Virus record (IMG/VR): IMGVR_UViG_3300038701_001228
Coordinates: 1 to 55,502 of that record
Origin: a virus
Reading direction: 5' to 3' (one strand)
Length of the DNA stretch: 55,502 nt
Shown: piece after piece, positions 6,047-22,487 of the stretch
Layout: every line of letters starts with the position of its first letter
Numbering within the stretch: the first letter of the stretch is position 1
The notes under the pieces: model-generated
Databases searched by the model: none
Seen by the model: the letters and a program-made list of their open reading frames with translations, nothing else
What the model was told of the DNA's origin: nothing
Program-made: the position numbers and the translations under genes

Positions 6047-6267
6047 AGCGTCCTGACCCCAAGGCGGTCAAAGCTCTTGCGCTGACGGCACGACAGTTCC
6101 CAGAGGTCCGCGAATGGATCAGGGACTGGTACCGGCAGGAACTGGAGCAACTGCCCAGTGTTGGACAGAATGTGGCACTCGCACAGGGGCGGTGTCAGGT
6201 TCTGAAAGAACTCCATACGCTTATGGAGAAGGCCCCTGACATCGCTACAGAACCCGGCAAGGGATAG
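6043..6267 (+). CDS. Hypothetical protein
   Basis: 74-aa ORF overlapping the portal stop in an ATGA arrangement. Confidence 0.5.
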   Translation: MKRPDPKAVKALALTARQFPEVREWIRDWYRQELEQLPSVGQNVALAQGRCQVLKELHTLMEKAPDIATEPGKG

Positions 6268-6301
6268 CTGTTGGCTACGCATACCGATAGGAGCGTTCAA
6301 T

Positions 6302-7315
6302 ATGGCACTACCAGCACAAGTTCGTAAGCAGTCTGAGGCAGTCAACAAACTGTACGAAGAACTCAATGCTGACACGGAACAGACGGTCGAGACGACCGAG
6401 TCTGAGCCGGAAGGCGTTGAGGGCACGTCGCAGGGCGGAGAGGCCGACAGTGCAGCGAATGGAGCGCCCAAGTCCACGAAGCCAACCGAGCAGGCTGCTG
6501 TGGACCCTGACGAGGAAGAAACCTTTGAGAAAAGGTACCGTAGCCTGCAAGGCATGTACAACGCTGAGGTCCCTCGGCTTGCCGCAGAAAAGCGGGAGCT
6601 GACCAACCGCGTACAGCAGCTCGAGCAGCTGATCGCTTCGATGAACGCCGCGCCTGCACCCCAGCAGGAACCAGCCCAGAAGCTCGTCACCGAGCAGGAC
6701 TTGGAAGATTACGGCGATTCTATCGACGTCATGCGGCGCGTTTTCCGTGAGGAGATGGCGTCGAAGGATGCAGAGATCGGCGAGCTCAAGAACTTGGTTC
6801 GGCAGATGCAAGGCACGGTGGTCCCCCAAGTCCACCAGCTTTCGCAGAACTATGCCGTGTCCAATGAGCAGCGGTTTTGGGCGGACCTACAGACGGCTGT
6901 ACCTGACTGGCAGGAGATCAACGGCAACAAGGAGTTCCAAGCATGGCTCCTTGAGGTTGATCCACTCACGGGTATTGCCCGCCAGACGTATCTGGACGAC
7001 GCACAGCGTAACATGGATGCACGTCGGGTGGCCAATTTCTTCACGGCTTGGAAGGGCCTGACTGGTAAGACCGATGCTCGTACTTCGCGGGAACCTCAGT
7101 CCGCCTCGGAGCTTGAACGTCAGGTAGCACCCGGCAAAGGCCGGTCTGGCGGTGCCAAGCCTCAAGGCGAGGCCAAAACCTATACGTCCGAGGACATCAA
7201 GAAGTTCTTCTCTGATGTCCAGAAGGGGAAGTATAAGGGACGGGAGACTGAGCGGGACCGTATTGAGCGCGACATTTTCGCTGCACAGCGGGAAGGTCGT
7301 ATCGTAACCGCATGA
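6302..7315 (+). CDS. Putative scaffolding protein
   Basis: 337 aa, acidic and coiled-coil rich, located between portal and major capsid genes. Confidence 0.65.
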   Translation: MALPAQVRKQSEAVNKLYEELNADTEQTVETTESEPEGVEGTSQGGEADSAANGAPKSTKPTEQAAVDPDEEETFEKRYRSLQGMYNAEVPRLAAEKRELTNRVQQLEQLIASMNAAPAPQQEPAQKLVTEQDLEDYGDSIDVMRRVFREEMASKDAEIGELKNLVRQMQGTVVPQVHQLSQNYAVSNEQRFWADLQTAVPDWQEINGNKEFQAWLLEVDPLTGIARQTYLDDAQRNMDARRVANFFTAWKGLTGKTDARTSREPQSASELERQVAPGKGRSGGAKPQGEAKTYTSEDIKKFFSDVQKGKYKGRETERDRIERDIFAAQREGRIVTA

Positions 7316-8268: not shown

Positions 8269-8712
8269 ATGACTGCTTACACTGACAGCCTCGGCTTCAA
8301 CAAGGGCAACGCAGATGCGTACCTTGCGCAGGGCAACGACCAACTGACGGTTATGTCCGTCGAGCTGGACTTTGCGGACATCATTGCAGCCCGTTCGGCG
8401 GCTGGGGTTGCGGCCCTGACCACCAGCGACACGCTGCAGGTTCTGCGCATCCCCGCCGGCTCGGTGGTCCTGTCGGCTGGTTTCACCGTGACCTCGGTGG
8501 AATCGACCAACACGACCGGCACCATCGGTCTGGCAGATGGCTCTGTGACGTACGCGACCGGCATCGCTATCAACGCGACCGGTACCAGTGCGGCGAATCT
8601 GGCGAACCCCACCGTGTACAGCGCGGCGGATACGCTGGACATCTCGTTCGCCACTGCCATGCCGACTGACCTCGTGGTCAAGGCATGGGTCGTCATGGCC
8701 GACGTGAGCTAA
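8269..8712 (+). CDS. Virion structural protein (possible capsid decoration)
   Basis: 147 aa directly downstream of the capsid gene with SD AAGGAGG. Thr/Ser/Ala-rich, beta-type sequence. Confidence 0.45.
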   Translation: MTAYTDSLGFNKGNADAYLAQGNDQLTVMSVELDFADIIAARSAAGVAALTTSDTLQVLRIPAGSVVLSAGFTVTSVESTNTTGTIGLADGSVTYATGIAINATGTSAANLANPTVYSAADTLDISFATAMPTDLVVKAWVVMADVS

Positions 8713-8713
8713 T

Positions 8714-8735
8714 GGTAGGGGCTTCGGCCCCTACC
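8714..8735 (+). terminator. UUCG-tetraloop hairpin after the capsid module (attenuator / RNA-stability element)
   Basis: ggtaggggc-ttcg-gcccctacc is a perfect 9-bp stem. No U-tract follows. Confidence 0.5.
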
Positions 8736-8754
8736 TCCATCCAAGGAGGAACTC

Positions 8755-9054
8755 ATGTCTGTCTACAAAGGTACGACCTACTCGAACCTGACGGCGATCA
8801 ATGCGACTGTTGATTCGCTGACCGCGACTGGGACGATCACCGGTAGCCTCGACGCCACCGGCGGTTATCTGCAAATCCCGACGGCAGCCGCGACCGCGAT
8901 TGCCGACATCGGAGACGCCATCAACACGGCCAACAAGGCCGCTGGCTCTGTGGTGTTCGACGTGACCAACAGCAAGCTGAAGATCGCAACCGGCGCAGAT
9001 GCCGATTCGACTTGGGTCGATGCTGACGGTACCAACGCGGTGACGCCGTCCTAA
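8755..9054 (+). CDS. Hypothetical structural protein
   Basis: 99-aa ORF with SD AAGGAGG. Thr/Ala/Gly-rich. Confidence 0.5.
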   Translation: MSVYKGTTYSNLTAINATVDSLTATGTITGSLDATGGYLQIPTAAATAIADIGDAINTANKAAGSVVFDVTNSKLKIATGADADSTWVDADGTNAVTPS

Positions 9055-9058
9055 TAGG

Positions 9059-9076
9059 CGGGCCCTTCGGGGCCCG
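9059..9076 (+). terminator. UUCG-tetraloop hairpin
   Basis: cgggccc-ttcg-gggcccg is a perfect 7-bp stem directly after the stop of CDS 8755..9054. Confidence 0.45.
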
Positions 9077-9101
9077 TCTCACCATCTGAGAGGACACACT
9101 T

Positions 9102-9329
9102 ATGCCCGGCACTCGCATCAAGGACCTTATGGCTCTCTCTGGCGCAAGCAGCGCCAACAACGATGATCTCGTGATCTTCGACGCTGATGCCGATGAGACC
9201 AAACGTATTTCGCGCTCGCAACTCGCATTGGGTATGGCGGGCGACCTTGGCGGGGCAAACGGATCGTTCACTACCACAGACGGAAAAACCGTGACCGTGG
9301 TTGGCGGCCTTATCACGAGCATAGTTTAA
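9102..9329 (+). CDS. Hypothetical structural protein
   Basis: 75-aa ORF with SD GAGAGGA. Confidence 0.5.
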   Translation: MPGTRIKDLMALSGASSANNDDLVIFDADADETKRISRSQLALGMAGDLGGANGSFTTTDGKTVTVVGGLITSIV

Positions 9330-9341
9330 GGAACAACCACC

Positions 9342-10364
9342 ATGGCCACGAACTTCACAGGCTCTCAGATCAAAGACACCTACGACCAAATCCTGCACGT
9401 GGATGGTGGACCTGAAGCTACCGAAAAGGTGGTCTACAGCGGCGTGGGCGTGGCGACGGCGGTCAAAATCGGGACCGGTTCCGCCTCGGTGGATAACGTC
9501 CGCCTCGACGGCAACACAATCAGCACGCTCGATACCAACGGCAACCTCGTCCTCAGCCCCAACGGGACTGGCTCGGTCAGCATGACCAAGGCCGCCATCA
9601 CTGGCGGCACCATCACGGGGATCACCGACCTCGCCGTCGCTGACGGCGGCACGGGCGCGTCAGACGCCGCTGGGGCACGGACCAACCTCGGGCTGGGTAC
9701 CGTCGCCACGCAAGACGCCAACAACATCAGCATCACCGGTGGGTCGATCTCGGGCGTCTCGTTCTCCGGCACCTTCACCGGCATCACGGCGATCACCTCC
9801 ACCTCATTCTTCACGGGCAACGCTACCACTGGCCTGACCCTGACCGACAACGATCTGCTGGCCGACGGCACTGACACCGACATCGACATCGACCTGATCC
9901 CCAAGGGGACGGGCGAGGTGAACATCTCCAAGGTGGACATCGACGGCGGTGCTATCGACGGGACGGTGATCGGCGGCGCGACACCTGCGGCTGGTACTTT
10001 CACAGACGCATTGGCCACGGATAACGTGGGCTACACCACGGGCAACGGCGGCACCGTCACACAGACCACCAGCCGGACGACTGGGGTCACGCTCAACGCT
10101 CCTTCCGGGCAGATCACGCTGGTTGCCGGCACGATCTCTGGTCTGTCCTCGCAGGAGTTCACGCTGACCAACAGCTACATCGCCGCGACGGATGTGGTTC
10201 TCGTCAGCTTCGGGTCCGGCCTGACAGCGACGACATACGATGTTACCGTCACGGAGACGTCAGCCGGCTCGTGCAAAATCTCGGTCCACAACGTCAACAA
10301 CTCGGCCACCCCGAGCGACACGCCGGTCATCAACTTCGTGGTCTTCAAGGGAGTGAACAGCTAA
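9342..10364 (+). CDS. Fibre-like structural protein
   Basis: 340 aa, Gly/Thr-rich repeats (ITGGTITGI, ITGGSISGV). Contains the DGGTGA...ARTNLGLG motif that recurs in phage fibre proteins. Confidence 0.6.
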   Translation: MATNFTGSQIKDTYDQILHVDGGPEATEKVVYSGVGVATAVKIGTGSASVDNVRLDGNTISTLDTNGNLVLSPNGTGSVSMTKAAITGGTITGITDLAVADGGTGASDAAGARTNLGLGTVATQDANNISITGGSISGVSFSGTFTGITAITSTSFFTGNATTGLTLTDNDLLADGTDTDIDIDLIPKGTGEVNISKVDIDGGAIDGTVIGGATPAAGTFTDALATDNVGYTTGNGGTVTQTTSRTTGVTLNAPSGQITLVAGTISGLSSQEFTLTNSYIAATDVVLVSFGSGLTATTYDVTVTETSAGSCKISVHNVNNSATPSDTPVINFVVFKGVNS

Positions 10365-10657: not shown

Positions 10658-10843
10658 ATGGCTGAGAAAAAAGGCAGTCCCAAACCTACGAACCCGTCGC
10701 TCTGGTCTCGCGTGAAGGCTGAGGCCAAGAAGAAGTTCGACGTGTACCCGAGCGCCTACGCCAATGCGTGGGCGTCGAAGGAGTACAAGAAGCGTGGCGG
10801 CGGCTGGCGCGGCCCTGACAACAGGGTGAAGAAGCGTGGCTAA
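10658..10843 (+). CDS. Small basic protein (61 aa)
   Basis: MAEKKGSPKPTNPSLWSRVKAEAKKKFDVYPSAYANAWASKEYKKRGGGW... Confidence 0.6.
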   Translation: MAEKKGSPKPTNPSLWSRVKAEAKKKFDVYPSAYANAWASKEYKKRGGGWRGPDNRVKKRG

Positions 10844-11072
10844 GGGTGGGCTCGGCAAATGGTTCGGGGAGAAGTGGGTCGATGTGAAGACCGGCAAACC
10901 CTGTGGCCGGTCTGGGTCTGAGAAGAAGTCCCGCGCATACCCGGCCTGCCGCCCCAAGGCCGCGGCGAAGAAGATGACCGCAAGCGAGAAGCGGTCTATG
11001 GCAGCGAAGAAGACCGGCCCGGCCCGCAAGTCGTGGCCGGTCAAACCATCTGGGAAACGGAGATCGAAATGA
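10836..11072 (+). CDS. Small basic protein (78 aa)
   Basis: GTG 10836 overlaps the previous stop (GTGGCTAA). Sequence MAKGGLGKWFGEKWVDVKTGKPCGRSGSEKKSRAYPACRPK... followed by a Lys/Arg-rich tail. Confidence 0.55.
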   Translation: MAKGGLGKWFGEKWVDVKTGKPCGRSGSEKKSRAYPACRPKAAAKKMTASEKRSMAAKKTGPARKSWPVKPSGKRRSK

Positions 11073-11338
11073 CAACGATGTATCTGCGGAACAAGAAGGA
11101 CGGTTTCATCTACGGCTGGAACGAAATCCTTGCCATGAACCCGCTGTGCGAGCCCGTCACCGAGGAGGAAGCGTTTCCCGAGCGGTTCGTGAAGCCGGCG
11201 CAGGTGGAGACCGTTAAGAAGACCCGGGCGCGGCGCAAGACCAAGGCGCTCGATCTGTCCACGGATGACATTCCGGACGAACCGAAGTATGTTGCCCCCG
11301 AGATCGAGGCCGATGCGTCGAAGGATTTGCCTGAATGA
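11069..11338 (+). CDS. Hypothetical protein
   Basis: ATG 11069 overlaps the previous stop in an ATGA arrangement. 89 aa. The track ORF from 11033 is an extension. Confidence 0.5.
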   Translation: MTTMYLRNKKDGFIYGWNEILAMNPLCEPVTEEEAFPERFVKPAQVETVKKTRARRKTKALDLSTDDIPDEPKYVAPEIEADASKDLPE

Positions 11339-11979
11339 CACCCACTGAAGTCATATCCGAGGCCCGCAGGCTTATCAACGACAACCGCTCGCCGCAGCGG
11401 TACTCGGATGCTGACATGCTGGGGTTCGTCAACCAGACGCTGAAGCGTGCAGCGATGTACCGTCCCGATCTGTTCCTGCAGATCGGAGACATCAGCACAG
11501 CTGCCGACACGACCGTGCAGACCATGCCCGCCGACTCGATCCGCTTGGTGGAAATTTTCGGCGTCAAGGACGGCGGCACCGTCACGGAGGTAGATCGGGA
11601 GGTCTTCGACCAGACGTACCCCGGGTGGCGCTCAGAGGCGTCCGGGACCCCCGTGAACTTCATGCGGCATGTCCGCAACCCCAACGTCTATTTCCTCTAC
11701 CCTCGGCCCGTGTCAGGCGTTATACTGCTCGCAGAATACGCCAAGGTGCCGACGGATTACGCCCTCAACGATCCAATCGCTGCTCCGATTGATGCGTACT
11801 TCCCGACAATCGTGGATGGCACAGTCTATCTGGCCGAATCCGTGGACGACGAGCATGTGAACTCTGGGCGTGCCAAGCTGTTCCTCGATTCGTTCACCCA
11901 AGGTCTGGGTGTCTCGCTGCAGTCCCGCGAGATCACGGACAGCGAAGAAGCAGGGCTTGACCCGAGGAGAATTGGCTGA
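11335..11979 (+). CDS. Putative head-tail adaptor / connector protein
   Basis: 214 aa, ATGA-coupled to the previous gene. Position and general sequence style only. Confidence 0.4.
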   Translation: MTPTEVISEARRLINDNRSPQRYSDADMLGFVNQTLKRAAMYRPDLFLQIGDISTAADTTVQTMPADSIRLVEIFGVKDGGTVTEVDREVFDQTYPGWRSEASGTPVNFMRHVRNPNVYFLYPRPVSGVILLAEYAKVPTDYALNDPIAAPIDAYFPTIVDGTVYLAESVDDEHVNSGRAKLFLDSFTQGLGVSLQSREITDSEEAGLDPRRIG

Positions 11980-12749
11980 TGGCGACGCGCACGTTCGCAT
12001 CACTGGTCCCGAGGCTGAACCCCAGTGTGCCGGGTTGCCCCCAGTACACGATGATCCAGTACATCCGCGATGCGGCGATCCGCGTGTGCGAGCGCACGCT
12101 CGCTTGGCGCTATGTGCAGCCCACGTTCCCGCTCCTGCCCGGCGTGCATGAGTATCTCTACGATAAGCCTGCGGGTACTGAGGTCCACGTCCTGTTCGAC
12201 GCGATGGTCAACGACCGCCCGCTGGCGAAGCTGCCACTGGAGCAGGCCCTGTTCCAATACCCCGAGTGGGCCGATCTGTACAGCGGGGAGGACCCCTCCA
12301 CTGTGTGGAGCCTGACGCCGTCGGGGTCGTACAACAGCTTTGAGTACAACGAGGGCCTGTTCAACGAGGACCCTGCGTTCGTCCTGCCCGAGGCTGTGGT
12401 GGCCAAGGCGTCCGAGCCGCGTTCGATCACGCAGCTGACGCCCGACAAGTACATCGTCCTGCCGCTGCCGGATGACGAGAAGACCTACACCACTCGGATG
12501 TTCTATGCCCTGAAGCCGTCGCGCGATGCCGAGGGCATGGACGAGGTCATCTTCAACGCGCTCGAGGAGGCCATCCTGCACAGCGCCCTGCAGTACCTGC
12601 TGGTGCTGCCGAACGTCGCTTGGTCCGACCGCGAGCTGGCGTCTTACCACGCCAAGCAGTTCCTCCGCGAGATGGTGGAGCGCCGGGCGCGGGCCAACCT
12701 TGGAAACATGCGGGGCGTCATGCGTGCCACCGCCCCGAAATTCGCGTGA
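11979..12749 (+). CDS. Putative head-tail / tail-proximal structural protein
   Basis: 256 aa, translationally coupled (TGATG) to the previous gene. Confidence 0.4.
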   Translation: MATRTFASLVPRLNPSVPGCPQYTMIQYIRDAAIRVCERTLAWRYVQPTFPLLPGVHEYLYDKPAGTEVHVLFDAMVNDRPLAKLPLEQALFQYPEWADLYSGEDPSTVWSLTPSGSYNSFEYNEGLFNEDPAFVLPEAVVAKASEPRSITQLTPDKYIVLPLPDDEKTYTTRMFYALKPSRDAEGMDEVIFNALEEAILHSALQYLLVLPNVAWSDRELASYHAKQFLREMVERRARANLGNMRGVMRATAPKFA

Positions 12750-12757
12750 GGTAGCCG

Positions 12758-13084
12758 ATGGTCCTGAAGATCACGAACAACGCCACGACCATAGTTCCGC
12801 TGGCTATCCAGAGCACCGATACCTCCCTGACCGTTGCCACTGGCACCGGCTCCTTGTTCCCGGTCCTTGGGGCCGGGGACTTCTTTTACGCTACGCTGAG
12901 CAGCACCGCTGGTGGTATGGAGATCATCAAGGTCACTGCTCGCGCCGATGATGTGATGACTATCGAGAGGGCGCAGGAAGGCACGCTGGCCATCCCCTTC
13001 GCGGCGAACAGCCGGTTGGAGATCAGGGTCACAGCGGCCAACCTGCAGAACTACGTCGACAGTCTGGACTTCTTGCTGCTGTGA
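12758..13084 (+). CDS. Stand-alone copy of the fibre/tailspike N-terminal anchor domain (108 aa)
   Basis: Aligns along its whole length with the N-termini of CDS 13091..15073 and CDS 18082..18597. Shared blocks: FYATL, E-I-[IV]-KVT, R-[AG]-QEGT, E-[IM]-RVTAA. Confidence 0.7.
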   Translation: MVLKITNNATTIVPLAIQSTDTSLTVATGTGSLFPVLGAGDFFYATLSSTAGGMEIIKVTARADDVMTIERAQEGTLAIPFAANSRLEIRVTAANLQNYVDSLDFLLL

Positions 13085-13090
13085 GGGACG

Positions 13091-15073
13091 ATGCCGGTCA
13101 TTCTGAAGAACAACGTCGATAGTGTCCTAGCTCAGGCGATCAATGCGTCTGAGACGGCTATGGTCGTTGCGACCGGCGAAGGGACTAAGTTCCCCGCACT
13201 GGCGGCTGGTGAGTACTTCTACGCCACGCTGGTGAGCGCACAGGGCACGCGCGAGATCGTCAAGGTCACGGGCAAGAGCGGCGACACGCTGGCCATCCAG
13301 CGTGGACAAGAGGGCACGACGGCTAACGGGTTCAGCACGGGCAGCCGCGTCGAGATGCGGGTCACAGCAGCCTCCATCACAGACCTCGTGGATGAGCACG
13401 ACCAAGCCTCGGAGATCAGCATCGCTGACGCCGGTGGGTACTACACCTCAGACAATGTCGAGGGTGCGCTGCAGGAGGCTGCAGTTTACAACCAAGGCGG
13501 CTCTGGCGCTGTCACCCGCACCGTCCGGTCCCGCCTGCGCGACTTCGTGTCCGTAAAGGATTTTGGAGCTGTAGGCGACGGCGTGACGGATGATACTGCG
13601 GCTATCAATGCTGCCATCAGTTATGTGCTGACAACACCGACATCAGAATTTCGTGGACGCACAGTATATTTTCCAGCTGGCCTCTATGCAGTAACAGAGA
13701 TTGATCTGTCCAATACTGTCGCGAATTTCAACCGCTCCATCCGCTTGCTCGGAGAGGGGCGCTATGCGTCACGGATCATTCCGTTCGCCCCGGGCTATGT
13801 TATGCTCAACATGCTTGGTCGCAACGTAGCGCAGATCGAAAGTCTGCATTTTGACAGTGACCCAGCCACATCTGGAAACTCAAACATCCCGCAGTGTGCC
13901 ATATTCATGGCCCGTTCGACCACGTCTGGGAACTGCAACAACAACAAGTTCCGCGACGTATGGATTACAGGCAACTACTCTGTTGCTTCTGTGACGTGCA
14001 ACGGTTCCGAGAGCAGCACTTGGTTTGGCGGGCGCATCGAGAACAATTACGCCCCTGCCAATCATCGCTGCTTGTGGACTGGTTCGGGGACCGCCATTGG
14101 CGGCTTGCAAGGCGTCACTGTTGTGAATGGCGGCACAGTCTCGAATACGAACAACCCGAACACCGACAACAGAATGTTCGGTGTAGAGTTCTACGCGCCG
14201 TTTAACAACGCCACAATGATTAGGCTTTCTACTTCTTTTGGGTGGCTGTTTGATGGATGCACTTTAGTTCTCGGTAACACGAACAATTCCAAGTTCGTCC
14301 TTTATGACACCCCGACAGGGGGTAGAATTAACGGACCGGCCCAATGGATAGGCTGTCATTTTGAAGGGTTTGGTTCGAACAACGTGGTTCACTATTTTGA
14401 CATCCCGTCTGCCGGTGAGACAACAATGGATAGCTTTCAATCCTACGCTGGGACTATTGTTGTAAATGATGGGACAGCATGGGTCGATTTTGATAGAACA
14501 GACATAAATAAAAAATTGACGCTTTTTGGTAGTTCTCTGCAAAGAACAAACTTACCACCGGGCGTTTCAACGCTTCCGGCTTATGTCAATACTTTGAACC
14601 GTAGCGTGTTCGAACAGCAAAAGTCGAACTTAACAGTATTTGACTTTTTGCTTCGTTCTGAGGTCATTGTTGATACGCTCAATGGCAATGATACAGCCGC
14701 TCTCGCCTATCCATATGAAATTCTTTTGGACGCCCTTCCAACTTCTGGGCAGTGGATGAAGGGCACGACCATTACGAAAACAAACCCTGTGGTCGGACAG
14801 CCTGTTGGGTGGAAGGTGACGGTCTCTGGCACCGCTGGGACATTGAACGGTGGCGCAACCACGGTTGCTGCTGACGCCGTAGCCACACATATCGTGCAGC
14901 TTAGTTCCGCAACTGACCTGTTTGTCGGGTGCAAGCTATCTATCGGTGGAACGATAAGATATGTTCGGTCGATCAGCGGAACAACTGTGTATTTGAACAG
15001 CACAGTCACCGCTTTGACGGGGTCTGCCGTTGCATTCTCTGCGCCGACCTTCGTTGCGCTGCCTAATCTGTGA
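13091..15073 (+). CDS. Tailspike 1: N-terminal anchor domain plus pectate-lyase-type beta-helix
   Basis: 660 aa. The first ~100 aa are paralogous to CDS 12758 and CDS 18082. The motif VKDFGAVGDGVTDDTAAINAAI is typical of the Pectate_lyase_3 / tailspike N-cap. Nucleotide composition drops sharply at about 13550. Confidence 0.75.
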   Translation: MPVILKNNVDSVLAQAINASETAMVVATGEGTKFPALAAGEYFYATLVSAQGTREIVKVTGKSGDTLAIQRGQEGTTANGFSTGSRVEMRVTAASITDLVDEHDQASEISIADAGGYYTSDNVEGALQEAAVYNQGGSGAVTRTVRSRLRDFVSVKDFGAVGDGVTDDTAAINAAISYVLTTPTSEFRGRTVYFPAGLYAVTEIDLSNTVANFNRSIRLLGEGRYASRIIPFAPGYVMLNMLGRNVAQIESLHFDSDPATSGNSNIPQCAIFMARSTTSGNCNNNKFRDVWITGNYSVASVTCNGSESSTWFGGRIENNYAPANHRCLWTGSGTAIGGLQGVTVVNGGTVSNTNNPNTDNRMFGVEFYAPFNNATMIRLSTSFGWLFDGCTLVLGNTNNSKFVLYDTPTGGRINGPAQWIGCHFEGFGSNNVVHYFDIPSAGETTMDSFQSYAGTIVVNDGTAWVDFDRTDINKKLTLFGSSLQRTNLPPGVSTLPAYVNTLNRSVFEQQKSNLTVFDFLLRSEVIVDTLNGNDTAALAYPYEILLDALPTSGQWMKGTTITKTNPVVGQPVGWKVTVSGTAGTLNGGATTVAADAVATHIVQLSSATDLFVGCKLSIGGTIRYVRSISGTTVYLNSTVTALTGSAVAFSAPTFVALPNL

Positions 15074-15083
15074 GGACTAGATC

Positions 15084-15890
15084 ATGACTATCAAAAGTAA
15101 TGGCGGAGTGTTTGGTCGCAACCCATCGTTTAACGATGTCGAAGCGAACAGCTTGGATGTGAGTGGACCAACAACGACTGGCTCTCCTTTGAGTGTTGAA
15201 ACCACTGGTGTGCCCTTCATCTCGATGCTTCGTAAATTTACGCCTTCAGCACCAGCTTTTGGTCTTGGGGTCTTAGACTTCAAGTCGTATTCAACTGGGA
15301 CCACAGAGGTCGCCGGCGCTAGGGTTGTGCCTCGCTCTGAAGGGGCTTGGTCTGGAAGTTCCGCTCCAACAAGCCTCGTGATCCAAACGGTCAACTTTGG
15401 AAGCACATCGCTTAGCGACAAAGTAACAATAAAAGCCGCCGGTGATGTTCAGCTTAATGCTGGCAACCTTGTCGTCGCCAACGGCAAAGGCATCGACTTC
15501 TCTGCCACCTCTGGCACTGGCACAAGCGAACTGTTCGATGACTATGAAGAGGGGACATTCACGCCAACGGACATATCAGGCGCAAGTCTCTCTTTGACTG
15601 TTTATCAGGCTTACTACACCAAAATTGGTCGGGTTGTTTATGCTTACCTTGACGTGGCATATCAATCAACAGCAGATGCAAACACGATGCTGCTGTCCCT
15701 TCCTTTTGCTCCTACTTCGGACGGCGGTGGTTCTATTGGTTATCAAAACATTGCATCCGCTACCCAGATTTTCGTTAATGTGTCAGACAGTCTGAATGGA
15801 GTTCGCATCGTGGATAACAGCGGAAACACACTTGCAAACTCTGCGCTTTCAGGGAAACGAGTGCAGATCATGTGTCAGTATAACTCATAA
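15084..15890 (+). CDS. Fibre-like / tail accessory protein (low-GC island)
   Basis: 268-aa ORF with SD GAGGA. Ser/Thr/Gly-rich beta-type sequence between the two tailspikes. Confidence 0.5.
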   Translation: MTIKSNGGVFGRNPSFNDVEANSLDVSGPTTTGSPLSVETTGVPFISMLRKFTPSAPAFGLGVLDFKSYSTGTTEVAGARVVPRSEGAWSGSSAPTSLVIQTVNFGSTSLSDKVTIKAAGDVQLNAGNLVVANGKGIDFSATSGTGTSELFDDYEEGTFTPTDISGASLSLTVYQAYYTKIGRVVYAYLDVAYQSTADANTMLLSLPFAPTSDGGGSIGYQNIASATQIFVNVSDSLNGVRIVDNSGNTLANSALSGKRVQIMCQYNS

Positions 15891-15901
15891 GGAAATGAAT
15901 C

Positions 15902-17485
15902 ATGGCCCTTACAAAAGTAAACTTTCGCATGATTGACGGGTCTGTGGCAAACGTCAGGGACTTTGGCGCTGATCCGACTGGGGTAAGTGATAGTGCTGCG
16001 GCGTTTCAAGCTGCGCTAGATGCAAGCAATGATGTGTTCATCCCAGCCGGAACTTACAAAGTTCTGTCGCAGATCAACTTGAATACAAACACCTACCTGT
16101 TTGGCGAAGGCGTATCGTCTACGATCCAGTGCGATACCGCAGACATTAACATCCTATCGGCTGTATCAAAAACGGATGTAATGATCGCAAATTTGAAAAT
16201 CACAGGCGTCGAAAGCACGACAAATGGCAACGCCATTTACTTTAGTGGGTGCAGGGATTGTGTTGTTGACCATATAGAGGTGACTGGCGTTTCTGGAGCC
16301 GGCGTTCTTGCAACAGCAGGGTCAGTCAGAATTCGTGTGAGCAACTCAAGATTTGACGCATTTACTGGAACCATCCAAGATAGTGCTGGCATTTCTTTTT
16401 ACCTAAACGCAAACAACTGCATTGCAGAAAATAACATTTGCACGAATGCAACGTGGCATGGAATTAGGTGTCAGCTTGATAGTTTGAACCACATCATTAA
16501 AAACAATTATGTCGAAGGGGCTTTGGCTTATGGCATTTTGGCTGGATACGAAAATGTTGACGCAATCAGCCAAGGCGTTGTTGACGGGAATATAATCAAA
16601 GACATTGAAGGCTCTGTTTTGATTTCCGGTGACAGACGTGCTGGTGCTGGCATTTATAGCCAAAGTGTTTATGGCTTAAAAATTGTCAACAACACTTTAG
16701 CTCGATGCAACAAGCAAACAGTTACAGAGGTTTTGGTACCAGCTGCTATTGGTGTTAGTGGTCGTGTAACCGTTTCCAACAACTTCATCTATGACACGTC
16801 GTGGTATGGTATTGGTATTTTTTCTGAAGATGAGGCGAGTATCGTATCGAACAACATCATCAAAAACTCTGCAAAGACAGCCATTTATTTGAAGAACGGA
16901 TTGAATGGCATTGTTGATGGTAATTTCATATCTTTTGCCACACCGCAGCGTGGTATTCTTGCCGTTCATCAAACTGGCGTTTATCGTTTTGTAAACATCT
17001 CGAACAACACTGTTGTCAACGGTAGTGATGCCATTGCTATTATCAATGGTGCTCACTTCACCATAGCAAACAATGTGGTTGATGATGCAACAGGTCGAGG
17101 TATTGACATTCAGAACAGCCCAGACGGGGCTGTAATTGGAAACATGGTGAAGAATACAACGGGAGATGCGTTCAGGGTTGCAACTGGAAGCAATATCCAA
17201 GTGACTGGTAATACGTTCATGTCGGTAGGAACGTATTCAATTACAACGTCAGGAACTTTGTCTGATGTTCATATCAATGAGAACATTCAATCTCCTTATG
17301 TCGTAGCAATCAGTGACGGTTCCTATGTCAGTTTTCGAGACGATAACGTCCCAACTTCTGGGGAATGGAGCAGAGGTTCTCGTGTTTATGACAACACACC
17401 ATCGGCAGGTGGAACTATTGGATGGGTATGCACATCAAGTGGTTCCCCCGGAACGTGGAAAACATTTGGTGCAATCACAGCTTAA
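15902..17485 (+). CDS. Tailspike 2: pectate-lyase-type right-handed beta-helix depolymerase
   Basis: 527 aa. N-terminal VRDFGADPTGVSDSAAAFQAALDA motif, then many parallel-beta-helix-type repeats (NNxI / GIxI). It has no anchor domain. Confidence 0.7.
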   Translation: MALTKVNFRMIDGSVANVRDFGADPTGVSDSAAAFQAALDASNDVFIPAGTYKVLSQINLNTNTYLFGEGVSSTIQCDTADINILSAVSKTDVMIANLKITGVESTTNGNAIYFSGCRDCVVDHIEVTGVSGAGVLATAGSVRIRVSNSRFDAFTGTIQDSAGISFYLNANNCIAENNICTNATWHGIRCQLDSLNHIIKNNYVEGALAYGILAGYENVDAISQGVVDGNIIKDIEGSVLISGDRRAGAGIYSQSVYGLKIVNNTLARCNKQTVTEVLVPAAIGVSGRVTVSNNFIYDTSWYGIGIFSEDEASIVSNNIIKNSAKTAIYLKNGLNGIVDGNFISFATPQRGILAVHQTGVYRFVNISNNTVVNGSDAIAIINGAHFTIANNVVDDATGRGIDIQNSPDGAVIGNMVKNTTGDAFRVATGSNIQVTGNTFMSVGTYSITTSGTLSDVHINENIQSPYVVAISDGSYVSFRDDNVPTSGEWSRGSRVYDNTPSAGGTIGWVCTSSGSPGTWKTFGAITA

Positions 17486-17534
17486 TGCGCTTTGAGCGTG
17501 GACAGGTCCAACAGGACGATAAAAGGAGGCCATC

Positions 17535-17792
17535 ATGGCACTGGAGAAGAAAACGATTAACGACAAGATCGAGGTTCTGCAACTGGCAGCGGGCTATCCC
17601 TGCGTGCAGGTCCGCACGGCCACGATCATCGCAGAGGATGGCGTGGAGATCAGTCGCACCTTCCACCGCCATGTGCTGACGCCTGACGCTGATCTGAGCG
17701 CAGAGGATGCGGACGTGGCGGCCATTGCCAGCGCCGTGTTCACCGACGAAGCCAAGGCGGCCTACGTCGCAGCGCAGGAGGCAAGCGAATGA
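17535..17792 (+). CDS. Hypothetical protein
   Basis: 85-aa ORF with SD AAGGAGG. Confidence 0.5.
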   Translation: MALEKKTINDKIEVLQLAAGYPCVQVRTATIIAEDGVEISRTFHRHVLTPDADLSAEDADVAAIASAVFTDEAKAAYVAAQEASE

Positions 17793-18079
17793 CCACCATC
17801 GCATCGGCGAGCATCACCGCCCAGAACACCTTCACCGACGCCGTACGGCTGGAGGGGTACTTCAACCTGTCCATCTCTGGCACGTGGGCGGCGACCGTCA
17901 CGGTCCAACGCAGCATCGACAACGCGACATGGGTAGATGCGGACACCTTCACCGCCAATTCCGAGGAGGTTGGTTTCGAGCCTGAGCTCATGTGGTACCG
18001 CGTTGGGGTAAAGACAGGGGACTTCACTTCTGGTACCGTCGTCCTGCGCCTCGGGCGCGAAGATAAGGACCGCCACTAA
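17789..18079 (+). CDS. Hypothetical protein
   Basis: 96-aa ORF with ATGA overlap to the previous gene. Confidence 0.5.
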   Translation: MTTIASASITAQNTFTDAVRLEGYFNLSISGTWAATVTVQRSIDNATWVDADTFTANSEEVGFEPELMWYRVGVKTGDFTSGTVVLRLGREDKDRH

Positions 18080-18081
18080 CC

Positions 18082-18597
18082 ATGCCTGTGCTTCTGAGGA
18101 ATAACGTATCTGCTACGCTCGCTGCAGCTTTGTCAGCGACGGATACCGGCATTGCGTTGTCCTCGGGGCAGGGCAGCCTGTTCCCCAGTCTGAGCGCAGG
18201 GGAATACTTCTACGCCACGCTCTCCGGCCCGACCACTGGGCCGGAGATTATCAAGGTCACAAACCGCGTGGGGGATACCCTCACCGTGACCCGCGCCCAA
18301 GAAGGAACTGTCGGGCAGCATTTCCCCGCCGGCGGGCGCATCGAGATCAGGGTCACAGCAGCCTCGGTTGAGGACAGAATTTCAAATCTGGACTTCACGG
18401 TGGACAGCTTCACTGGCACCGGGTCGCAGGTCAATTTTACACTTTCTACGACGCCAATCTCCAAGAACCACACATTGGTCTTCATCGACGGCGTGTATCA
18501 GGGCAAGGCTGGGTACTCTGTATCCGGCACGACGCTCACTTTTTCTGAAGCACCGCCGCTTAACAGCGCGGTTGAATGCAACACGATGGAGTTGTGA
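18082..18597 (+). CDS. Short fibre protein carrying the third copy of the anchor domain
   Basis: 171 aa. The N-terminal 100 aa are paralogous to CDS 12758 and CDS 13091. The C-terminal part has the form FTGTGSQVNFTLS...VFIDGVYQ...YSVSGTTLTFSEAP. Confidence 0.65.
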   Translation: MPVLLRNNVSATLAAALSATDTGIALSSGQGSLFPSLSAGEYFYATLSGPTTGPEIIKVTNRVGDTLTVTRAQEGTVGQHFPAGGRIEIRVTAASVEDRISNLDFTVDSFTGTGSQVNFTLSTTPISKNHTLVFIDGVYQGKAGYSVSGTTLTFSEAPPLNSAVECNTMEL

Positions 18598-18605
18598 GGA
18601 CGACG

Positions 18606-18860
18606 ATGGAAGCGGGGATGGTCTGGAACGGCATACTCACATTCGCATTTGGCCTGCTGGGCTGGGTGCTCAGGAACTATGTCGAGGAGCTAAAGCGGGT
18701 CACGATCCTGCTGAACCGCACGCGCGAGGAGATCGCCAAGGAGTATGTCACCAAAGGCGAGGTCCACGCCGACATCAACCGAGTGATGAGCCGACTGGAA
18801 GCCCTCGACGCCAAGCTGGACCGCCTGCTGGAAAGCCGGGCGAACAAGGGAGGTACGTGA
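18606..18860 (+). CDS. Single-TM membrane protein, putative holin or lysis regulator
   Basis: ATG 18606 follows SD GAGGA. N-terminal TM (WNGILTFAFGLLGWVL) then a coiled coil. Its stop overlaps the endolysin start (ATGA). Confidence 0.5.
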   Translation: MEAGMVWNGILTFAFGLLGWVLRNYVEELKRVTILLNRTREEIAKEYVTKGEVHADINRVMSRLEALDAKLDRLLESRANKGGT

Positions 18861-19447
18861 TGCAGGTCCCTGCGCACAAGACGAAGATCATGATCCACTG
18901 CCTCGCCACGCCGCCTAGCTGGGGCAAGCACAAGTCTGCCGAGCAGATGGTGGCTGAGGTCCGTCTGTGGCACACGCGGGACCGAGGCTGGAGCGACATC
19001 GCCTATGCCGAGATCGGGGACTACGGCGGCCACGGTGCGCCGGGCCGCGACCTGAACAACGACGGCAACACTTTCGACGACACCGGGGCCGGGGCGCGGG
19101 GCCACAACAGGGATACGATCCACCTCGCTCTCGCCGGTGGCCGCTGGCCTGACGGACGCTGGGGTGAGCGCACCGACGCCTTCGAGGACCACTTCACCCC
19201 GGAGCAGGACCGCTGGCTGCGTGAGACCATCGCCAAGATCAATCGCGCCGCGGGCCGCGAGCTACAGGTTCTGGGTCACAACGAGGTCGACCCCAACAAG
19301 GGCTGCCCGGCATTCGACGTGCAGAAGTGGTTGAAGGGTGTGCCTGCCGCGCCAGTCACAAAGCCGGTTGTGACTAAGAACCCGCTCGTCGCTATTCTCA
19401 ACGCAATCCTCAAGACCCTTGGGCTCAACAGAGGCGGCCCAGCATGA
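18860..19447 (+). CDS. Endolysin, N-acetylmuramoyl-L-alanine amidase (T7-lysozyme / PGRP type)
   Basis: 195 aa from ATG 18860. Zn-ligand pattern IMIHC...GHNEV...KGCP and overall Amidase_2-like sequence. The track ORF from 18368 is an out-of-context N-terminal extension. Confidence 0.8.
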   Translation: MQVPAHKTKIMIHCLATPPSWGKHKSAEQMVAEVRLWHTRDRGWSDIAYAEIGDYGGHGAPGRDLNNDGNTFDDTGAGARGHNRDTIHLALAGGRWPDGRWGERTDAFEDHFTPEQDRWLRETIAKINRAAGRELQVLGHNEVDPNKGCPAFDVQKWLKGVPAAPVTKPVVTKNPLVAILNAILKTLGLNRGGPA

Positions 19448-19620
19448 TCGCGCCAGTCATCCGCATCATCCTCCGGTACGGCGTCGGTGCCGTGGTCGGC
19501 ATGGAAATCGGGGGTATGTTGGCAGGCGACCCCGACGTTGTGATGCTGCTCGCCGCGGGCGTCGGCGCAGCCACCGAGGCAGTCTACGTCTTTGCCAAGA
19601 AGAAGGGGTGGACCACATGA
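19444..19620 (+). CDS. 58-aa two-TM membrane protein, putative holin (not in the ORF track)
   Basis: Translated by hand: MIAPVIRIILRYGVGAVVGMEIGGMLAGDPDVVMLLAAGVGAATEAVYVFAKKKGWTT. ATGA overlaps at both ends, with the endolysin stop and with the i-spanin start. Confidence 0.6.
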   Translation: MIAPVIRIILRYGVGAVVGMEIGGMLAGDPDVVMLLAAGVGAATEAVYVFAKKKGWTT

Positions 19621-19835
19621 TCGACCTGCTTACAGCCATCGGCGCAGCACTGGCCAGCGGGCTCGTGATGTACTTCTTCGGCTACCGGAAGGCCGACAAG
19701 GCCCGCACGCAGCAGGAGCTCAAGCGGAGGCTGGAGAACACGAAGCAAGCGCAGGAGGTGCGCGATGAGGTTGAGAGCTTGGATGATATTGATCTCGCTA
19801 CCCGCGCTCGCCGCTGGGTGCGTGGTGACGACTGA
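19617..19835 (+). CDS. i-spanin (Rz-like)
   Basis: 72 aa from ATG 19617. N-terminal TM (LLTAIGAALASGLVMYFFGY) then a charged coiled coil. Confidence 0.65.
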   Translation: MIDLLTAIGAALASGLVMYFFGYRKADKARTQQELKRRLENTKQAQEVRDEVESLDDIDLATRARRWVRGDD

Positions 19836-19962
19836 GTGCGATTGGACGCGCTCCATGCCCTTTGGCAGCCAACAAACGGTTGACTGGCTGCTGGAGAACG
19901 ACCGCCAGCTACTGATGGACGTCGTGGTCCACAACGAAGCCAGAGAAAGGATTTGCAGATGA
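19765..19962 (+). CDS. o-spanin (Rz1-like lipoprotein), partly overlapping the i-spanin in another frame
   Basis: Signal peptide plus lipobox (LISLPALAAGC). The first 71 nt overlap the 3' end of the i-spanin gene. Confidence 0.65.
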   Translation: MRLRAWMILISLPALAAGCVVTTECDWTRSMPFGSQQTVDWLLENDRQLLMDVVVHNEARERICR

Positions 19963-20096
19963 TGAACAAGAAGAAACCGATGAGCTACAAGAAGGGCGGC
20001 ATGGTGTTCAAGCCGTGCGCCTCATGCCCCAGCCCGGCCAAGTGCCGCAAAGCGGGTAAGTGCGCGAAGAAAGAAGCTGCGAAGAAAAAGAAGTAG
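19959..20096 (+). CDS. 45-aa Lys/Cys-rich miniprotein (not in the ORF track)
   Basis: Translated by hand: MMNKKKPMSYKKGGMVFKPCASCPSPAKCRKAGKCAKKEAAKKKK. ATGA overlap with the o-spanin stop. Confidence 0.5.
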   Translation: MMNKKKPMSYKKGGMVFKPCASCPSPAKCRKAGKCAKKEAAKKKK

Positions 20097-20099
20097 GGT

Positions 20100-22487
20100 A
20101 TGGCCGGGATCAAACTCCAGAAGTTTCTAGGGAAAGCTCCGCGCGTTGCGCCGGAGCTCCTTCCCGATATGGCGGCGCAGACGGCGACGAACGTCAAGCT
20201 GTACTCTGGAGATTTGATCCCCTACCCCCAGCCCGTTGTCGTGGGGAACCACGGGCTGTCTGGCGTAGCACCGGTGACGCTGCACGCCCTCTACGACCCG
20301 GCGGGCGATCCCGTCTGGCTTGTGTGGGACAGCGACGTGGACATCGCCACGCCCTCCGGAACTGACAACGCCGAGGAGCAGCGGTTCTATTACACCGGCG
20401 ACGGCGCACCCAAGGTATCGACCTACGCGCTGGCCACGACCGGGGCAGCACCCTACCCCGTGGACTACTACGACCTCGGGCTGCCGCTTCCGACGCAGAC
20501 CCCGACGGCAACCGAGACAGCCTTCACCACCAAGACGACGGCGACCTACGAGCGCGATGCTGGTGGCCTCGTGACCATGACGACCTCTGCGCCGCACGGC
20601 CTCAAGTCGGGTGCGTTTGTCACCATCAGCGGGTTCACCAACCGGTCAGGGACCTACAGCCAGTCTGGTACGACCATCACGGTGACGATCACGGGCCACG
20701 GGTTGGCCATCGGCTCGCGTGTTCTGCTGCGGTTTACCTCCGGCACGGCGACCGCCAACATCTTTACGGTCACGGCCACGCCATCAGCGAATACGTTTGA
20801 GGTCACGGCTGATGCGTCTGCAACGACCAGCGGTAACGTGGACTGGGACATTACCAACCTGAACGCCACGTCCATCGAGGTCACGGTCATCGACTCGACG
20901 ACCTTCACCTACACCAGCCCGGGTTTCCAAGTCTCGACCATCTCGAGCAGCGACGGGCGTGTCGACCTTGCCGGCGCTACACAGGCCCGCAGCTACCTCT
21001 ACACGTGGTTTACCCCGTGGGAGGAGGAGTCCATCGGCTCCGAGCCGTCGAACGAGCTGTTCATCAAGGAAGGTCAGCTCGTCACGGTCAGCAACCTGCC
21101 GACGGCCAAGCCTGCGGGCAAGAACCAAGTCCAAGGCATCCGCCTGTATCGCACGCTCTCGACTGTGGCGGACACCGAGTATCTGCGCCTCGCTACGCTG
21201 TGGTTCCCTGTGACCGTGGACACTGTGGTGGGCACGACGGTCACGACTGTGCAGCCCCACAACCTTGCGGTCGGCAACTACTTCAAGATCAGCACCGGCG
21301 TGGCCGGCGGCGAAGTCACGGATGTGGCTGACGACTACACCTTCACCTACACCGGCGGTACCGGCTCCGGCGGCGCGGGCGGCACGCTTTACCACGACGT
21401 CTCGGAGAACCCCGGGACGACCACGCCTCGGTACTGGGGCGATGGCTCCTACGATTTCACCGACGATTTCAACGTGGCCAGCCTGCTCAACGCGCTGGTG
21501 ACGGACGACTACGACCCGCCGCCGGAGGGCCTCAAGGGCCTGACGCTGTACAATAACAACATCCTCGTGGGATTCGTCGGCAACGAGCTCTACTTCTCCG
21601 AACCGGGCCGGTACCACGCATGGCCGCGTGCGTATAAGCGGGAGATTCCGTTCAACATCGTGGGGCTCGCGGTGTTCTCGGGATACCTGCTGGTTGCCAC
21701 AGACAACTACCCCTACCTCGTCGCTGGTAACGACCCGTCGATCCTCAGCCTGACGCGGGTCGATGCGCGGTACCCATGCCTGAACAAGCGCAGCATCGCC
21801 AACATGGGCTTTGGTGTGATGTACGCCACCCATGACGGGCTGGCGCTCTACTCGACCACGACCGGTCCGCAGCTTGCAACCCGCCTGCTGTACAACAGCG
21901 ACACGTGGAATGAAGACCTCGACCCGAGCACGCTCATCGCCACGGCGTATAAGGACACGTACCTCGCATGGCATTCTGCGGGCGGCATCAGCTTCGAGCG
22001 CGAAGACCGCGTCGGCGGTTTTTTCGTCGATCTCACAACCGCTGACCAGCCCGAGGCCACGTGGTATGATCCGCTCACCAACAAGCTGTACTACGCCACC
22101 GGCACCAATGGCGACGTGTATCTGTGGGATGATCTGACCCAGCCCGCCCAGCCGTTCGAGTGGAAGTCCAAGATCATCGTGACCCCCAACCCGATCAATA
22201 TCGGCGCGGCGCAGGTCGATGCTGACTACGCCGCCACCTCCCCGGTCTGGGACACGGTGACCGATACGTGGGGTACGTCTACTGTACAGTGGGACAACGA
22301 CGGTGGGATCACGTTCAAGCTGTGGGTCGACGGCGAACTGGTCTCTACGCAACAGCTTGACAATCGTAACGTGTTTCGTTTGCCCCGCGGTTACCGTTCG
22401 GATACATTCGAGGTAGGCGTTGAGGGCTCTGTGCGGCTGAGAACCATCCGGATTGCCGAGACGCCGACAGGGCTGAGAGAGGTTTAA
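20100..22487 (+). CDS. Large tail protein (tail-tubular-B / nozzle-like)
   Basis: 795 aa. Size and position fit a podovirus tail tube/nozzle protein. The assignment is positional. Confidence 0.45.
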   Translation: MAGIKLQKFLGKAPRVAPELLPDMAAQTATNVKLYSGDLIPYPQPVVVGNHGLSGVAPVTLHALYDPAGDPVWLVWDSDVDIATPSGTDNAEEQRFYYTGDGAPKVSTYALATTGAAPYPVDYYDLGLPLPTQTPTATETAFTTKTTATYERDAGGLVTMTTSAPHGLKSGAFVTISGFTNRSGTYSQSGTTITVTITGHGLAIGSRVLLRFTSGTATANIFTVTATPSANTFEVTADASATTSGNVDWDITNLNATSIEVTVIDSTTFTYTSPGFQVSTISSSDGRVDLAGATQARSYLYTWFTPWEEESIGSEPSNELFIKEGQLVTVSNLPTAKPAGKNQVQGIRLYRTLSTVADTEYLRLATLWFPVTVDTVVGTTVTTVQPHNLAVGNYFKISTGVAGGEVTDVADDYTFTYTGGTGSGGAGGTLYHDVSENPGTTTPRYWGDGSYDFTDDFNVASLLNALVTDDYDPPPEGLKGLTLYNNNILVGFVGNELYFSEPGRYHAWPRAYKREIPFNIVGLAVFSGYLLVATDNYPYLVAGNDPSILSLTRVDARYPCLNKRSIANMGFGVMYATHDGLALYSTTTGPQLATRLLYNSDTWNEDLDPSTLIATAYKDTYLAWHSAGGISFEREDRVGGFFVDLTTADQPEATWYDPLTNKLYYATGTNGDVYLWDDLTQPAQPFEWKSKIIVTPNPINIGAAQVDADYAATSPVWDTVTDTWGTSTVQWDNDGGITFKLWVDGELVSTQQLDNRNVFRLPRGYRSDTFEVGVEGSVRLRTIRIAETPTGLREV

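Follow-up and report, generated by a model that had tools for sequence, protein, structure and literature searches.

How several receptor-binding proteins can be fixed to one phage tail, and which of their parts act as constant connectors and which are exchanged, is the question raised by a stretch of DNA of 55,502 nucleotides (hereafter the window; positions 1 to 55,502 of IMG/VR record IMGVR_UViG_3300038701_001228), the source of which is an uncultured aquatic podophage with a genome of roughly 55 kb. Receptor-binding proteins set host range, and their engineering needs constant connectors to be told from exchangeable parts. Between positions 12758 and 18597 of the window one domain of about 100 residues, termed the anchor below, opens three predicted products: a protein of 108 amino acids (aa) with hardly anything besides it (12758-13084; the bare anchor), a tailspike of 660 aa (13091-15073; tailspike 1), and a two-domain protein of 171 aa (18082-18597). 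A short tail fibre of 268 aa (15084-15890) and a second tailspike of 527 aa (15902-17485; tailspike 2), encoded between them, carry no copy. These open reading frames (ORFs) were found at the coordinates given by a first-pass annotation made from the letters alone; the tail genes described here from adaptor I to the nozzle, as well as the exchangeable cassette among them, lie on the plus strand. The explanation proposed below combines GP4-type anchors, a docking adaptor of 171 aa, a fibre-less stub in the form of the bare anchor, and exchange of receptor-binding parts as a cassette, and taken as a whole we regard it as somewhat probable.

The repetition itself, noticed by the first-pass annotation, is well founded. 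An ungapped alignment of the three N-termini extends over about 104 residues and has 37 invariant columns; the pairwise identity of these termini in BLASTP is well above background (46%, E 6e-30, for the 108- and 660-aa products; 49%, E 2e-32, for the 108- and 171-aa products; 50%, E 1e-29, for the 660- and 171-aa products), a similarity far beyond chance. As DNA the three copies are strongly diverged throughout and share no long identical tracts; this divergence along the whole length rules out recent duplication or gene conversion and marks the copies as old paralogues. A hidden Markov model (HMM) built from them has exactly three matches in the window. Pfam holds no model for the domain, which constitutes the N-terminus of the PHROG tail-fibre families phrog_8469, phrog_6427, and phrog_30299 (E from 4e-30 to 1e-34 for all three anchored proteins) and by sequence matches one solved chain, 8jov_1, a putative tail fiber protein (E 1e-17 and 9e-16). 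The corresponding PDB entry 8JOV is the portal-tail complex of Ralstonia phage GP4 with 18 fibre chains, 12 chains of gp81, and 6 of the nozzle. The same chain is the best Foldseek match of the AlphaFold2 (AF2) models for both the 108-aa product (predicted local distance difference test, pLDDT, 83; template modelling score, TM, 0.81/0.75; root-mean-square deviation, rmsd, 1.9 Å; 48% identity) and the 171-aa product (pLDDT 88.6; TM 0.53/0.77; rmsd 1.7 Å). Sequence and fold alike agree with the anchor of GP4 gp76 and Bcep22-type fibres, the matching socket genes are present in synteny, and the repeated domain is the N-terminal beta-barrel of the GP4/Bcep22-type tail fibre. A preprint on phage phi24B (10.64898/2026.04.10.717836) describes, for its lateral fibre, an equivalent N-terminal beta-sandwich which binds the tail-adaptor ring at its junction with the nozzle, with a trimeric coiled coil from around residue 100 onwards. 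Because of homology to the solved complex, the docking site can be placed where adaptor II meets the nozzle, the point at which the beta-barrel would plug in the fibres, and the name "anchor" seems apt. The domain is widespread, with 9,909 representatives (50% clustering, E<=1e-3) almost always matched at residues 1-100 of proteins from 100 to >1000 aa; it was also encountered in siphophage context. Searched by tblastn it gives matches in 150 phage records, with four copies per genome in DC1 and CSP3, three in JC1 and BcepMigl, and two in GP4-like Ralstonia phages. A PDB search with the second anchored fibre of GP4, gp75, showed that only its paralogue gp76 is modelled. Thus, the repeat is real and has biological meaning, and its family of anchors is a known one with a solved structure.

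The putative socket is formed by genes on both sides of the locus. Head-to-tail adaptor I (214 aa, 11335-11979) matches Pfam PF24175 SU10_adaptor (E 7e-23) and keeps its position in all related loci; tail adaptor II (256 aa, 11979-12749) matches chain 8jov_G, gp81 of GP4 (phmmer against PDB, E 1e-14), and also phrog_437, a virion structural protein; the nozzle gene (795 aa, 20100-22487), a homologue of the six-copy gp74 of GP4 (8jov_A, E 1.5e-54; phrog_511, E 3e-116), marks the end of the module. The portal is of SU10 type, the order adaptor, fibre(s), nozzle agrees with DC1 and GP4, and by homology the tail core, comprising two adaptor rings and a hexameric nozzle, is of the GP4/Bcep22/phi24B type. 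A nucleotide search with 11000-20000 against cultured phages gave no match, and the identity of adaptor II to any cultured phage is at most 28%. Metagenomic relatives are many, several of them on contigs of 54-58 kb, and about 100 related loci (numbered with L below) were gathered around the adaptor II gene. Most commonly, these loci have the bare anchor behind adaptor I and adaptor II and ahead of a large anchored receptor-binding protein (424-1220 aa), the C-terminus of which is hypervariable. Host inference over 185,579 species genomes retrieved only four short contigs (L115-L118) in metagenome-assembled genomes labelled Gemmatimonadaceae, Microbacteriaceae, an actinobacterium, and Verrucomicrobiota; mis-binning of phage sequence is the probable cause, and no host information follows from them. 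In practical terms, the lineage lacks a cultured member.

Anchorless proteins and a candidate docking adaptor

In tailspike 1 the anchor (residues 1-104, positions 13091-13402) passes via a short collar (...ISIADAGGYYTSDNVEGALQE) into a pectate-lyase-like beta-helix, which begins at about residue 152 (Pfam PF12708, residues 152-242, E 2e-14, 54 bits at a cut-off of 27). The protein belongs to PHROG tail fibre and tail spike families, matches 8jov_1 with residues 5-111 (E 1e-17), and is predicted to be a directly anchored beta-helix enzyme. Tailspike 2 falls into the same structural class (Pfam PF13229, E 3e-26, 92 bits at a cut-off of 25.9; PF12708, E 6e-15, 56 bits; phrog_2234, tail spike), and with Pfam matches above curated thresholds in both proteins the presence of two pectate-lyase-like tailspikes in one locus is supported. 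The best cultured-phage matches of both are 24-30% identical, with no close characterised homologue. The first-pass annotation also assumed that tailspike 2 and the 268-aa fibre dock onto one of the anchored proteins, which is still the most likely arrangement, and considered tailspike 1 for this role, which found no support: the gap between the end of the anchor (104) and the start of PF12708 (152) is about 47 residues, and neither Pfam nor PHROGs reveal a branching domain, T4 gp10-like or other, between anchor and beta-helix. This short gap and the lack of a detectable branching domain make tailspike 1 a poor candidate for the docking site.

As to the statement that the two proteins have no anchor of their own, it is correct in that the anchor HMM finds no copy of the ~100-residue domain in them, but short conserved N-terminal peptides had been overlooked. 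The 268-aa fibre starts with MTIKSNGGVFGRNPSFNDVEA, a version of the peptide MTIKxxGGVFGRNPxFNDV (15084-15146), and has a distal ...GIDFSATSGTGTSELFDDYEEGT[FW]TP... domain; its distal half is a fibre-tip domain matching tail-fibre C-termini of marine cyanophages and pelagiphages. A PDB sequence search with this fibre gave no match, and Pfam returned nothing for it, as for the 108-aa product and for the 85- and 96-aa products described further on. The MTIK-type peptide (consensus MTIKxxGG[VI]FGRNPxF in the window, L004, L005, L099-L105, L110, and L112) tops otherwise unrelated fibres in all these relatives except L004, where a 42-aa ORF (8876-9004) keeps only the peptide, MTIK...GGVFGRSPTFNDVEA, in a genome without 171-type adaptor and tailspike-2-type protein, and is a real gene stump. 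The peptide has no match among cultured phages. Tailspike 2 (N-terminus MALTKVNFRMIDG) begins with the dodecapeptide MALTKVNFRMID (15902-15937) followed directly by the right-handed beta-helix. Proteins at the same position in relatives start with MALTKAHNRMIEG (L005), MSLTKATYSMIEG (L023), MVLTKTTYSMITG (L108), MALTRISGRMIN (L110), and MALTKVFNRMIEG (L112), which together with the window give the consensus MALT[KR]xxx[RS]MI, and beyond the peptide they are 24-29% identical or barely alignable. Analogy with the systems compared at the end of this article suggests that both peptides are of docking type.

The candidate for their partner is the 171-aa protein, modelled by AF2 as anchor (1-92), helix (93-101), and beta-sandwich (105-169). 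The sandwich has a weak Pfam match to DUF4183 and, where it is found inside a tailspike of L023, a weak match to Phage_T7_tail as well; Foldseek gives partial matches (68-77 columns, rmsd 2.2-2.9 Å) to T7-type fibre N-domains of T7 (8dsp, 8dsp_E), PhiM1 (8vbx, 8vbx_S), P-SCSP1u (8i4m, 8i4m_M), and Kp7 (7y22, 7y22_e), and no T4 gp10 match among the best 50. Described initially as a fibre, this product is probably not a receptor-binding one. In the 171-type family (165-231 aa) variation is confined to the linker, and the distal domain is as conserved across lineages as the anchor (consensus NFTGTGSQVxFTL...DGVYQxKxxYSVSGTTLTFSEAPPLNxxIEV), and therefore fits a constant phage partner rather than a variable host receptor. 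The tailspike-2-type peptide and the sandwich domain occur together in 7/7 lineages (window, L005, L023, L108, L110, L112, and L114), a count based on seven lineages only with translations partly read by eye, and no sandwich domain was seen in six lineages without this peptide. The strongest argument comes from L110 and L114, where the region from adaptor II to nozzle encodes no anchored protein besides the bare anchor and a 165/166-aa homologue. Next come an anchorless short fibre and an anchorless beta-helix tailspike; something anchored must hold these two, because otherwise the particle bears no receptor-binding protein. The first tailspike of L023 contains the sandwich in fused form, placed between its anchor and its beta-helix, and a separate 171-type gene is not present, so that fused L023 and split window make a pair like K1F and K1-5. 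From these data we infer that the 171-aa protein is a probable docking adaptor for peptide-tagged proteins and a better candidate than the 108-aa one: the 268-aa fibre would bind it via MTIKxxGGVFGRNPxF and tailspike 2 via MALTKxxxRMI, in an arrangement analogous to gp37 of K1-5/SP6 with its peptide-tagged tailspikes. As a separate observation, in L112 an anchor-plus-sandwich gene (6232-6738) is located in the head-gene region beside a fibre of the 340-aa type described below and not after adaptor II, and the first tailspike after adaptor II begins differently there (MAAKRIPQLDP...).

The bare anchor and competing explanations

The 108-aa protein ends with ...DSLDFLLL and a stop codon exactly where the 171-aa protein runs on with ...SNLDFTVDSF, as was pointed out by the first-pass annotation, which left the choice between a stand-alone adaptor and the stump of a displaced fibre. 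In its AF2 model a beta-barrel (1-92) is followed by a helix (93-102) and the C-terminal tail. The ordered part of the GP4 fibre in the cryo-electron microscopy map is 116 residues long, and the 108-aa protein therefore approximates this ordered part alone. A homologue search covering 5.8 billion proteins yielded at least 120 clusters of orthologues with 60-96% identity, all of 108-109 aa, and remoter representatives (51-56% identity) of 100-108 aa. Seven orthologues from related loci gave ratios of nonsynonymous to synonymous substitution rates (dN/dS) of 0.11-0.30 at dS values reaching saturation. When 102 distinct anchors were compared in a neighbour-joining tree, every protein of 105-109 aa fell into one clade, apart from the anchors of receptor-binding proteins and marked by the diagnostic residues TARxDDxMT and GTLAIPFxANSRFE. 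The C-terminus ...D/N-x-L/I-D/N-F/Y/V-LLL is at least 90% conserved, ...LLL being retained down to 51-56% identity, and a Shine-Dalgarno-like GAGG is situated 5' of the start codon. One identical bare-anchor sequence stands ahead of three different sets of receptor-binding proteins. Judged by conservation and substitution pattern, the bare anchor is a functional gene kept under selection.

A non-functional ORF, left behind when insertion of the cassette truncated a fibre gene, might be suggested by its end at the domain boundary, by the real stump in L004 indicating that such stumps do arise in the region, and by relatives like L010, where the first slot is occupied by a full-length receptor-binding protein starting with MVLKITNNA... 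like the bare anchor. This reading is already contradicted by the length, which stays at 105-109 aa in >120 clusters with identities as low as about 50%, by the selection, monophyly, and conserved C-terminal motif just described, and by the good ribosome-binding site, and has next to no probability. The other version of the first-pass model, in which the 108-aa protein as a stand-alone adaptor or tailspike 1 as a branching protein carries tailspike 2 and the 268-aa fibre, and the 171-aa product is an ordinary short fibre, could refer to the conserved hydrophobic ...LLL as a binding epitope, to the first place of the bare anchor in gene order, and to proteins of 367-371 aa with three tandem anchors in one chain and no distal domain (L119 P0240; P0247), the gene for which in L119 (3451-4554) is flanked by the genes of an anchorless tail protein of 1095 aa (phrog_2871, Calx-beta) and of a nozzle (phrog_511). 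However, L003, L013, L014, and L019 contain the bare anchor and one further, anchored receptor-binding protein with nothing anchorless, and since it is present in genomes devoid of anchorless receptor-binding proteins, the bare anchor is probably no general adaptor. Neither room for nor sign of a branching domain exists in tailspike 1, and the distal domain of the 171-type family is too conserved for a host-range determinant; altogether this model appears quite unlikely. Also against this model, L010 and L053 possess the conserved upstream fibre of the 340-aa type without bare anchor, and for this reason an adaptor role of the bare anchor for that fibre was rejected.

A different view is that the anchored paralogues compete for the same six sockets, giving rise to mixed virions, while tailspike 2 and perhaps the 268-aa fibre are soluble enzymes released at lysis. 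The 18 fibre chains of GP4 correspond to only six trimeric sockets; Lessieviruses encode three to four anchored fibres, of which one alone was detected in JC1 virions (PMC9144972); a heterogeneous virion population was proposed for Bcep22-like phages (PMC10269572), and soluble anchorless depolymerases for some Klebsiella phages (PMC6872550). Yet both anchorless proteins keep their N-terminal peptides across cassettes otherwise nearly unrelated, which is unexpected for a free enzyme, and the particles of L110 and L114 would then bear no receptor-binding protein, so we consider this possibility unlikely.

As compared to these alternatives, the explanation with a 171-aa docking adaptor and a fibre-less bare anchor is preferred, and for the latter the best guess, made with low certainty, is an occupant of the socket: filler, brace, or spacer. 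The 108-aa protein may hold the same class of sockets as a stub capped by its C-terminal helix and ...LLL; a docking or assembly role is also possible. Judging from the triple-anchor proteins, a fibre-less unit of three anchors can apparently stand as a component by itself. It is conceivable, though rather doubtful, that bare anchors and triple-anchor proteins represent an undescribed virion component, namely fibre-less occupants which set the number or choice of receptor-binding proteins on the six-socket tail or hand over sockets in the course of assembly. If true, this would offer a concrete mechanism for how several paralogous anchored fibres fill one socket ring, and the bare anchor gives a handle on the sharing of the ring, a question raised for Bcep22-like phages. 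Several points speak against the preferred explanation in addition to the small number of lineages behind the co-occurrence. The bare anchor is absent from L010, L053, L070, L080, and L082, loci complete from adaptor II to nozzle and having a single anchored protein, and its function is therefore dispensable; the selective reason for retaining a "blank" is speculative. In L099-L105 the MTIK-type fibre comes after an anchored tailspike, the contigs being of insufficient length to reveal the presence or absence of a 171-type gene. The sandwich resembles a tail-binding domain and not a T4 gp10-like branching domain, and could make a tail contact of its own instead of holding other proteins. Finally, the GP4 complex has just six trimeric sockets, which three anchored species would have to share.

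Exchangeable cassette and neighbouring genes

Comparison with the closest relative, L005 (adaptor II 95% identical), outlines the exchanged part of the locus. By blastn homology extends up to 13614 and is back at 17482, delimiting a cassette of 3.9 kb (13615-17481) which includes residues ~175-660 of tailspike 1, the 268-aa fibre, and tailspike 2. The left breakpoint, found also in L008 (13618), falls within VSVKDFGAVGDGVTDDTAAI, the conserved beginning of the tailspike 1 beta-helix (residue ~175); the right one coincides with the stop codon of tailspike 2. L005 carries different versions of all three parts in unchanged order, and these versions together with the breakpoints imply that the three were replaced jointly, tailspike 1 with its catalytic part only. 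The sole homology to L005 inside the cassette is an 83-bp island (15483-15565, 94% identical) coding for the GIDFSATSGTGTSELFDDYEEGT motif of the short fibre, which may be a recombination hot spot. The cassette coincides exactly with a trough in GC content (~13500-17500; 0.40-0.54, down from about 0.62, with 0.60-0.65 in the flanks), where GC at third codon positions (GC3) is 0.41-0.59 versus about 0.8, suggesting origin in a lower-GC phage. Thus, a modular locus of several receptor-binding proteins with exchanged modules, as anticipated by the first-pass annotation, does exist, though the exchange takes place not at the anchor boundary but inside tailspike 1, and the whole block moves as one. 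Host range may accordingly be expected to evolve by swapping this cassette, with anchors and docking peptides staying constant.

Two small conserved genes (85 aa, 17535-17792; 96 aa, 17789-18079) accompany the receptor-binding-protein region. The 85-aa product matches phrog_6228 and has a homologue in L005, the 96-aa one has homologues in L004, L005, and L008 and no significant similarity to DC1 gp55, a small virion protein encoded ahead of the DC1 fibres. The stretch that separates the last anchored gene from the nozzle gene (18576-19962) contains the gene of a small membrane-plus-coiled-coil protein and further small ORFs. At the equivalent position relatives have Pfam matches to holin and Peptidase_M15, and the tail module thus probably harbours a lysis cassette here; the 192-aa lysis candidate of the window has no Pfam match.

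Outside the locus, a fibre-like protein of 340 aa without anchor is encoded at 9342-10364, its N-terminal 205 residues being ~69% identical and its C-terminus variable. In L003, L004, and L023-L025 the slot 5' of this type of fibre is filled by a second hypervariable protein (292-1068 aa), with matches to Peptidase_S74 or pectate-lyase in some cases; the window has no such gene there (gap 8712-9342). The counterpart of the 61-aa basic protein of the window (10658-10843) is split in L053 (7691-8620) by an insertion of ~248 residues, which starts with Cys, ends with ...VTGN followed by Ser, has both flanks colinear with the window protein, and resembles an intein. At 26975-35224 a giant ORF of 2749 aa has no Pfam match; in Bcep22-like phages a giant DarB-like virion protein is encoded 3' of the tail genes (PMC9144972).

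Comparison with known systems

The anchor family, structurally solved, and the presence of multiple anchored paralogues in the wider phage group are already known, and what is new here is the conserved family of bare anchors, the anchor-plus-sandwich protein with its putative peptide-tagged partners, and the clean boundaries of the cassette. The closest structural reference is gp76 of GP4 ("fibre III" of that phage), the equivalent of which in Stx phage phi24B is lateral fibre gp61. Common to GP4 and the window are the N-terminal beta-barrel (39-48% identity, TM 0.77-0.81, rmsd 1.7-1.9 Å), homologues of gp81, the adaptor with 12 copies, and of the nozzle with 6 copies, and the gene order, whereas instead of the long trimeric stalks of GP4 and phi24B the window has one copy ending after the first helix and one with a 65-residue sandwich only. 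Lessieviruses (Bcep22, BcepIL02, DC1, JC1, and CSP3) likewise possess 3-4 paralogues with the same N-domain and variable C-termini between adaptor and nozzle genes, as exemplified by four tandem annotated tail-fibre genes just 5' of the nozzle homologue in DC1. Unlike in the window, all of these copies are full fibres of about 290-350 aa, and Lessievirus annotations contain no bare anchor, anchor-plus-sandwich adaptor, or anchorless peptide-tagged tailspikes. For Bcep22-like phages with several fibre genes the assembly was left open and mixed virion populations were suggested (PMC9144972; PMC10269572).

Docking of anchorless tailspikes by N-terminal peptides on an adaptor or branching domain is established for K1-5/K1E/SP6 and G7C and was modelled for Klebsiella phages, so that an adaptor with docking peptides of 7/11 residues has precedent; fused and split versions of the modules coexist among relatives there as they do here, and the second receptor-binding proteins of KP34 type start with MALxxLV (PMC6872550). 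Like gp37 of K1-5/K1E/SP6, the 171-aa product is predicted to be a small tail-anchored protein without receptor-binding or enzymatic domain, and like their partners the 268-aa fibre and tailspike 2 are anchorless and have short N-terminal peptides conserved independently of the remainder. In contrast to K1-5/SP6, the anchor is of GP4 type and not of T7 gp17 type, the distal sandwich is T7-fibre-N-domain/DUF4183-like and not T4 gp10-like, the peptides are unrelated in sequence, and the interaction is deduced from co-occurrence and from L110/L114. With G7C gp66/gp63.1 and the Klebsiella KP32 group the window shares a first receptor-binding protein that is anchored and another that in place of an anchor has only a conserved peptide at its N-terminus, and the two enzymatic specificities per particle typical for those phages have a possible parallel in the two beta-helix tailspikes predicted from sequence. 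Unlike in G7C and KP32, tailspike 1 lacks a T4 gp10-like branching domain, and branching is apparently provided by the separate 171-aa protein. The anchor-plus-sandwich protein and the peptides would thus constitute a functional analogue of the K1-5/SP6 adaptor made from different parts, in a widespread lineage of aquatic phages with three kinds of connectors: the GP4-type anchor, the small anchored two-domain protein, and two short putative docking peptides.

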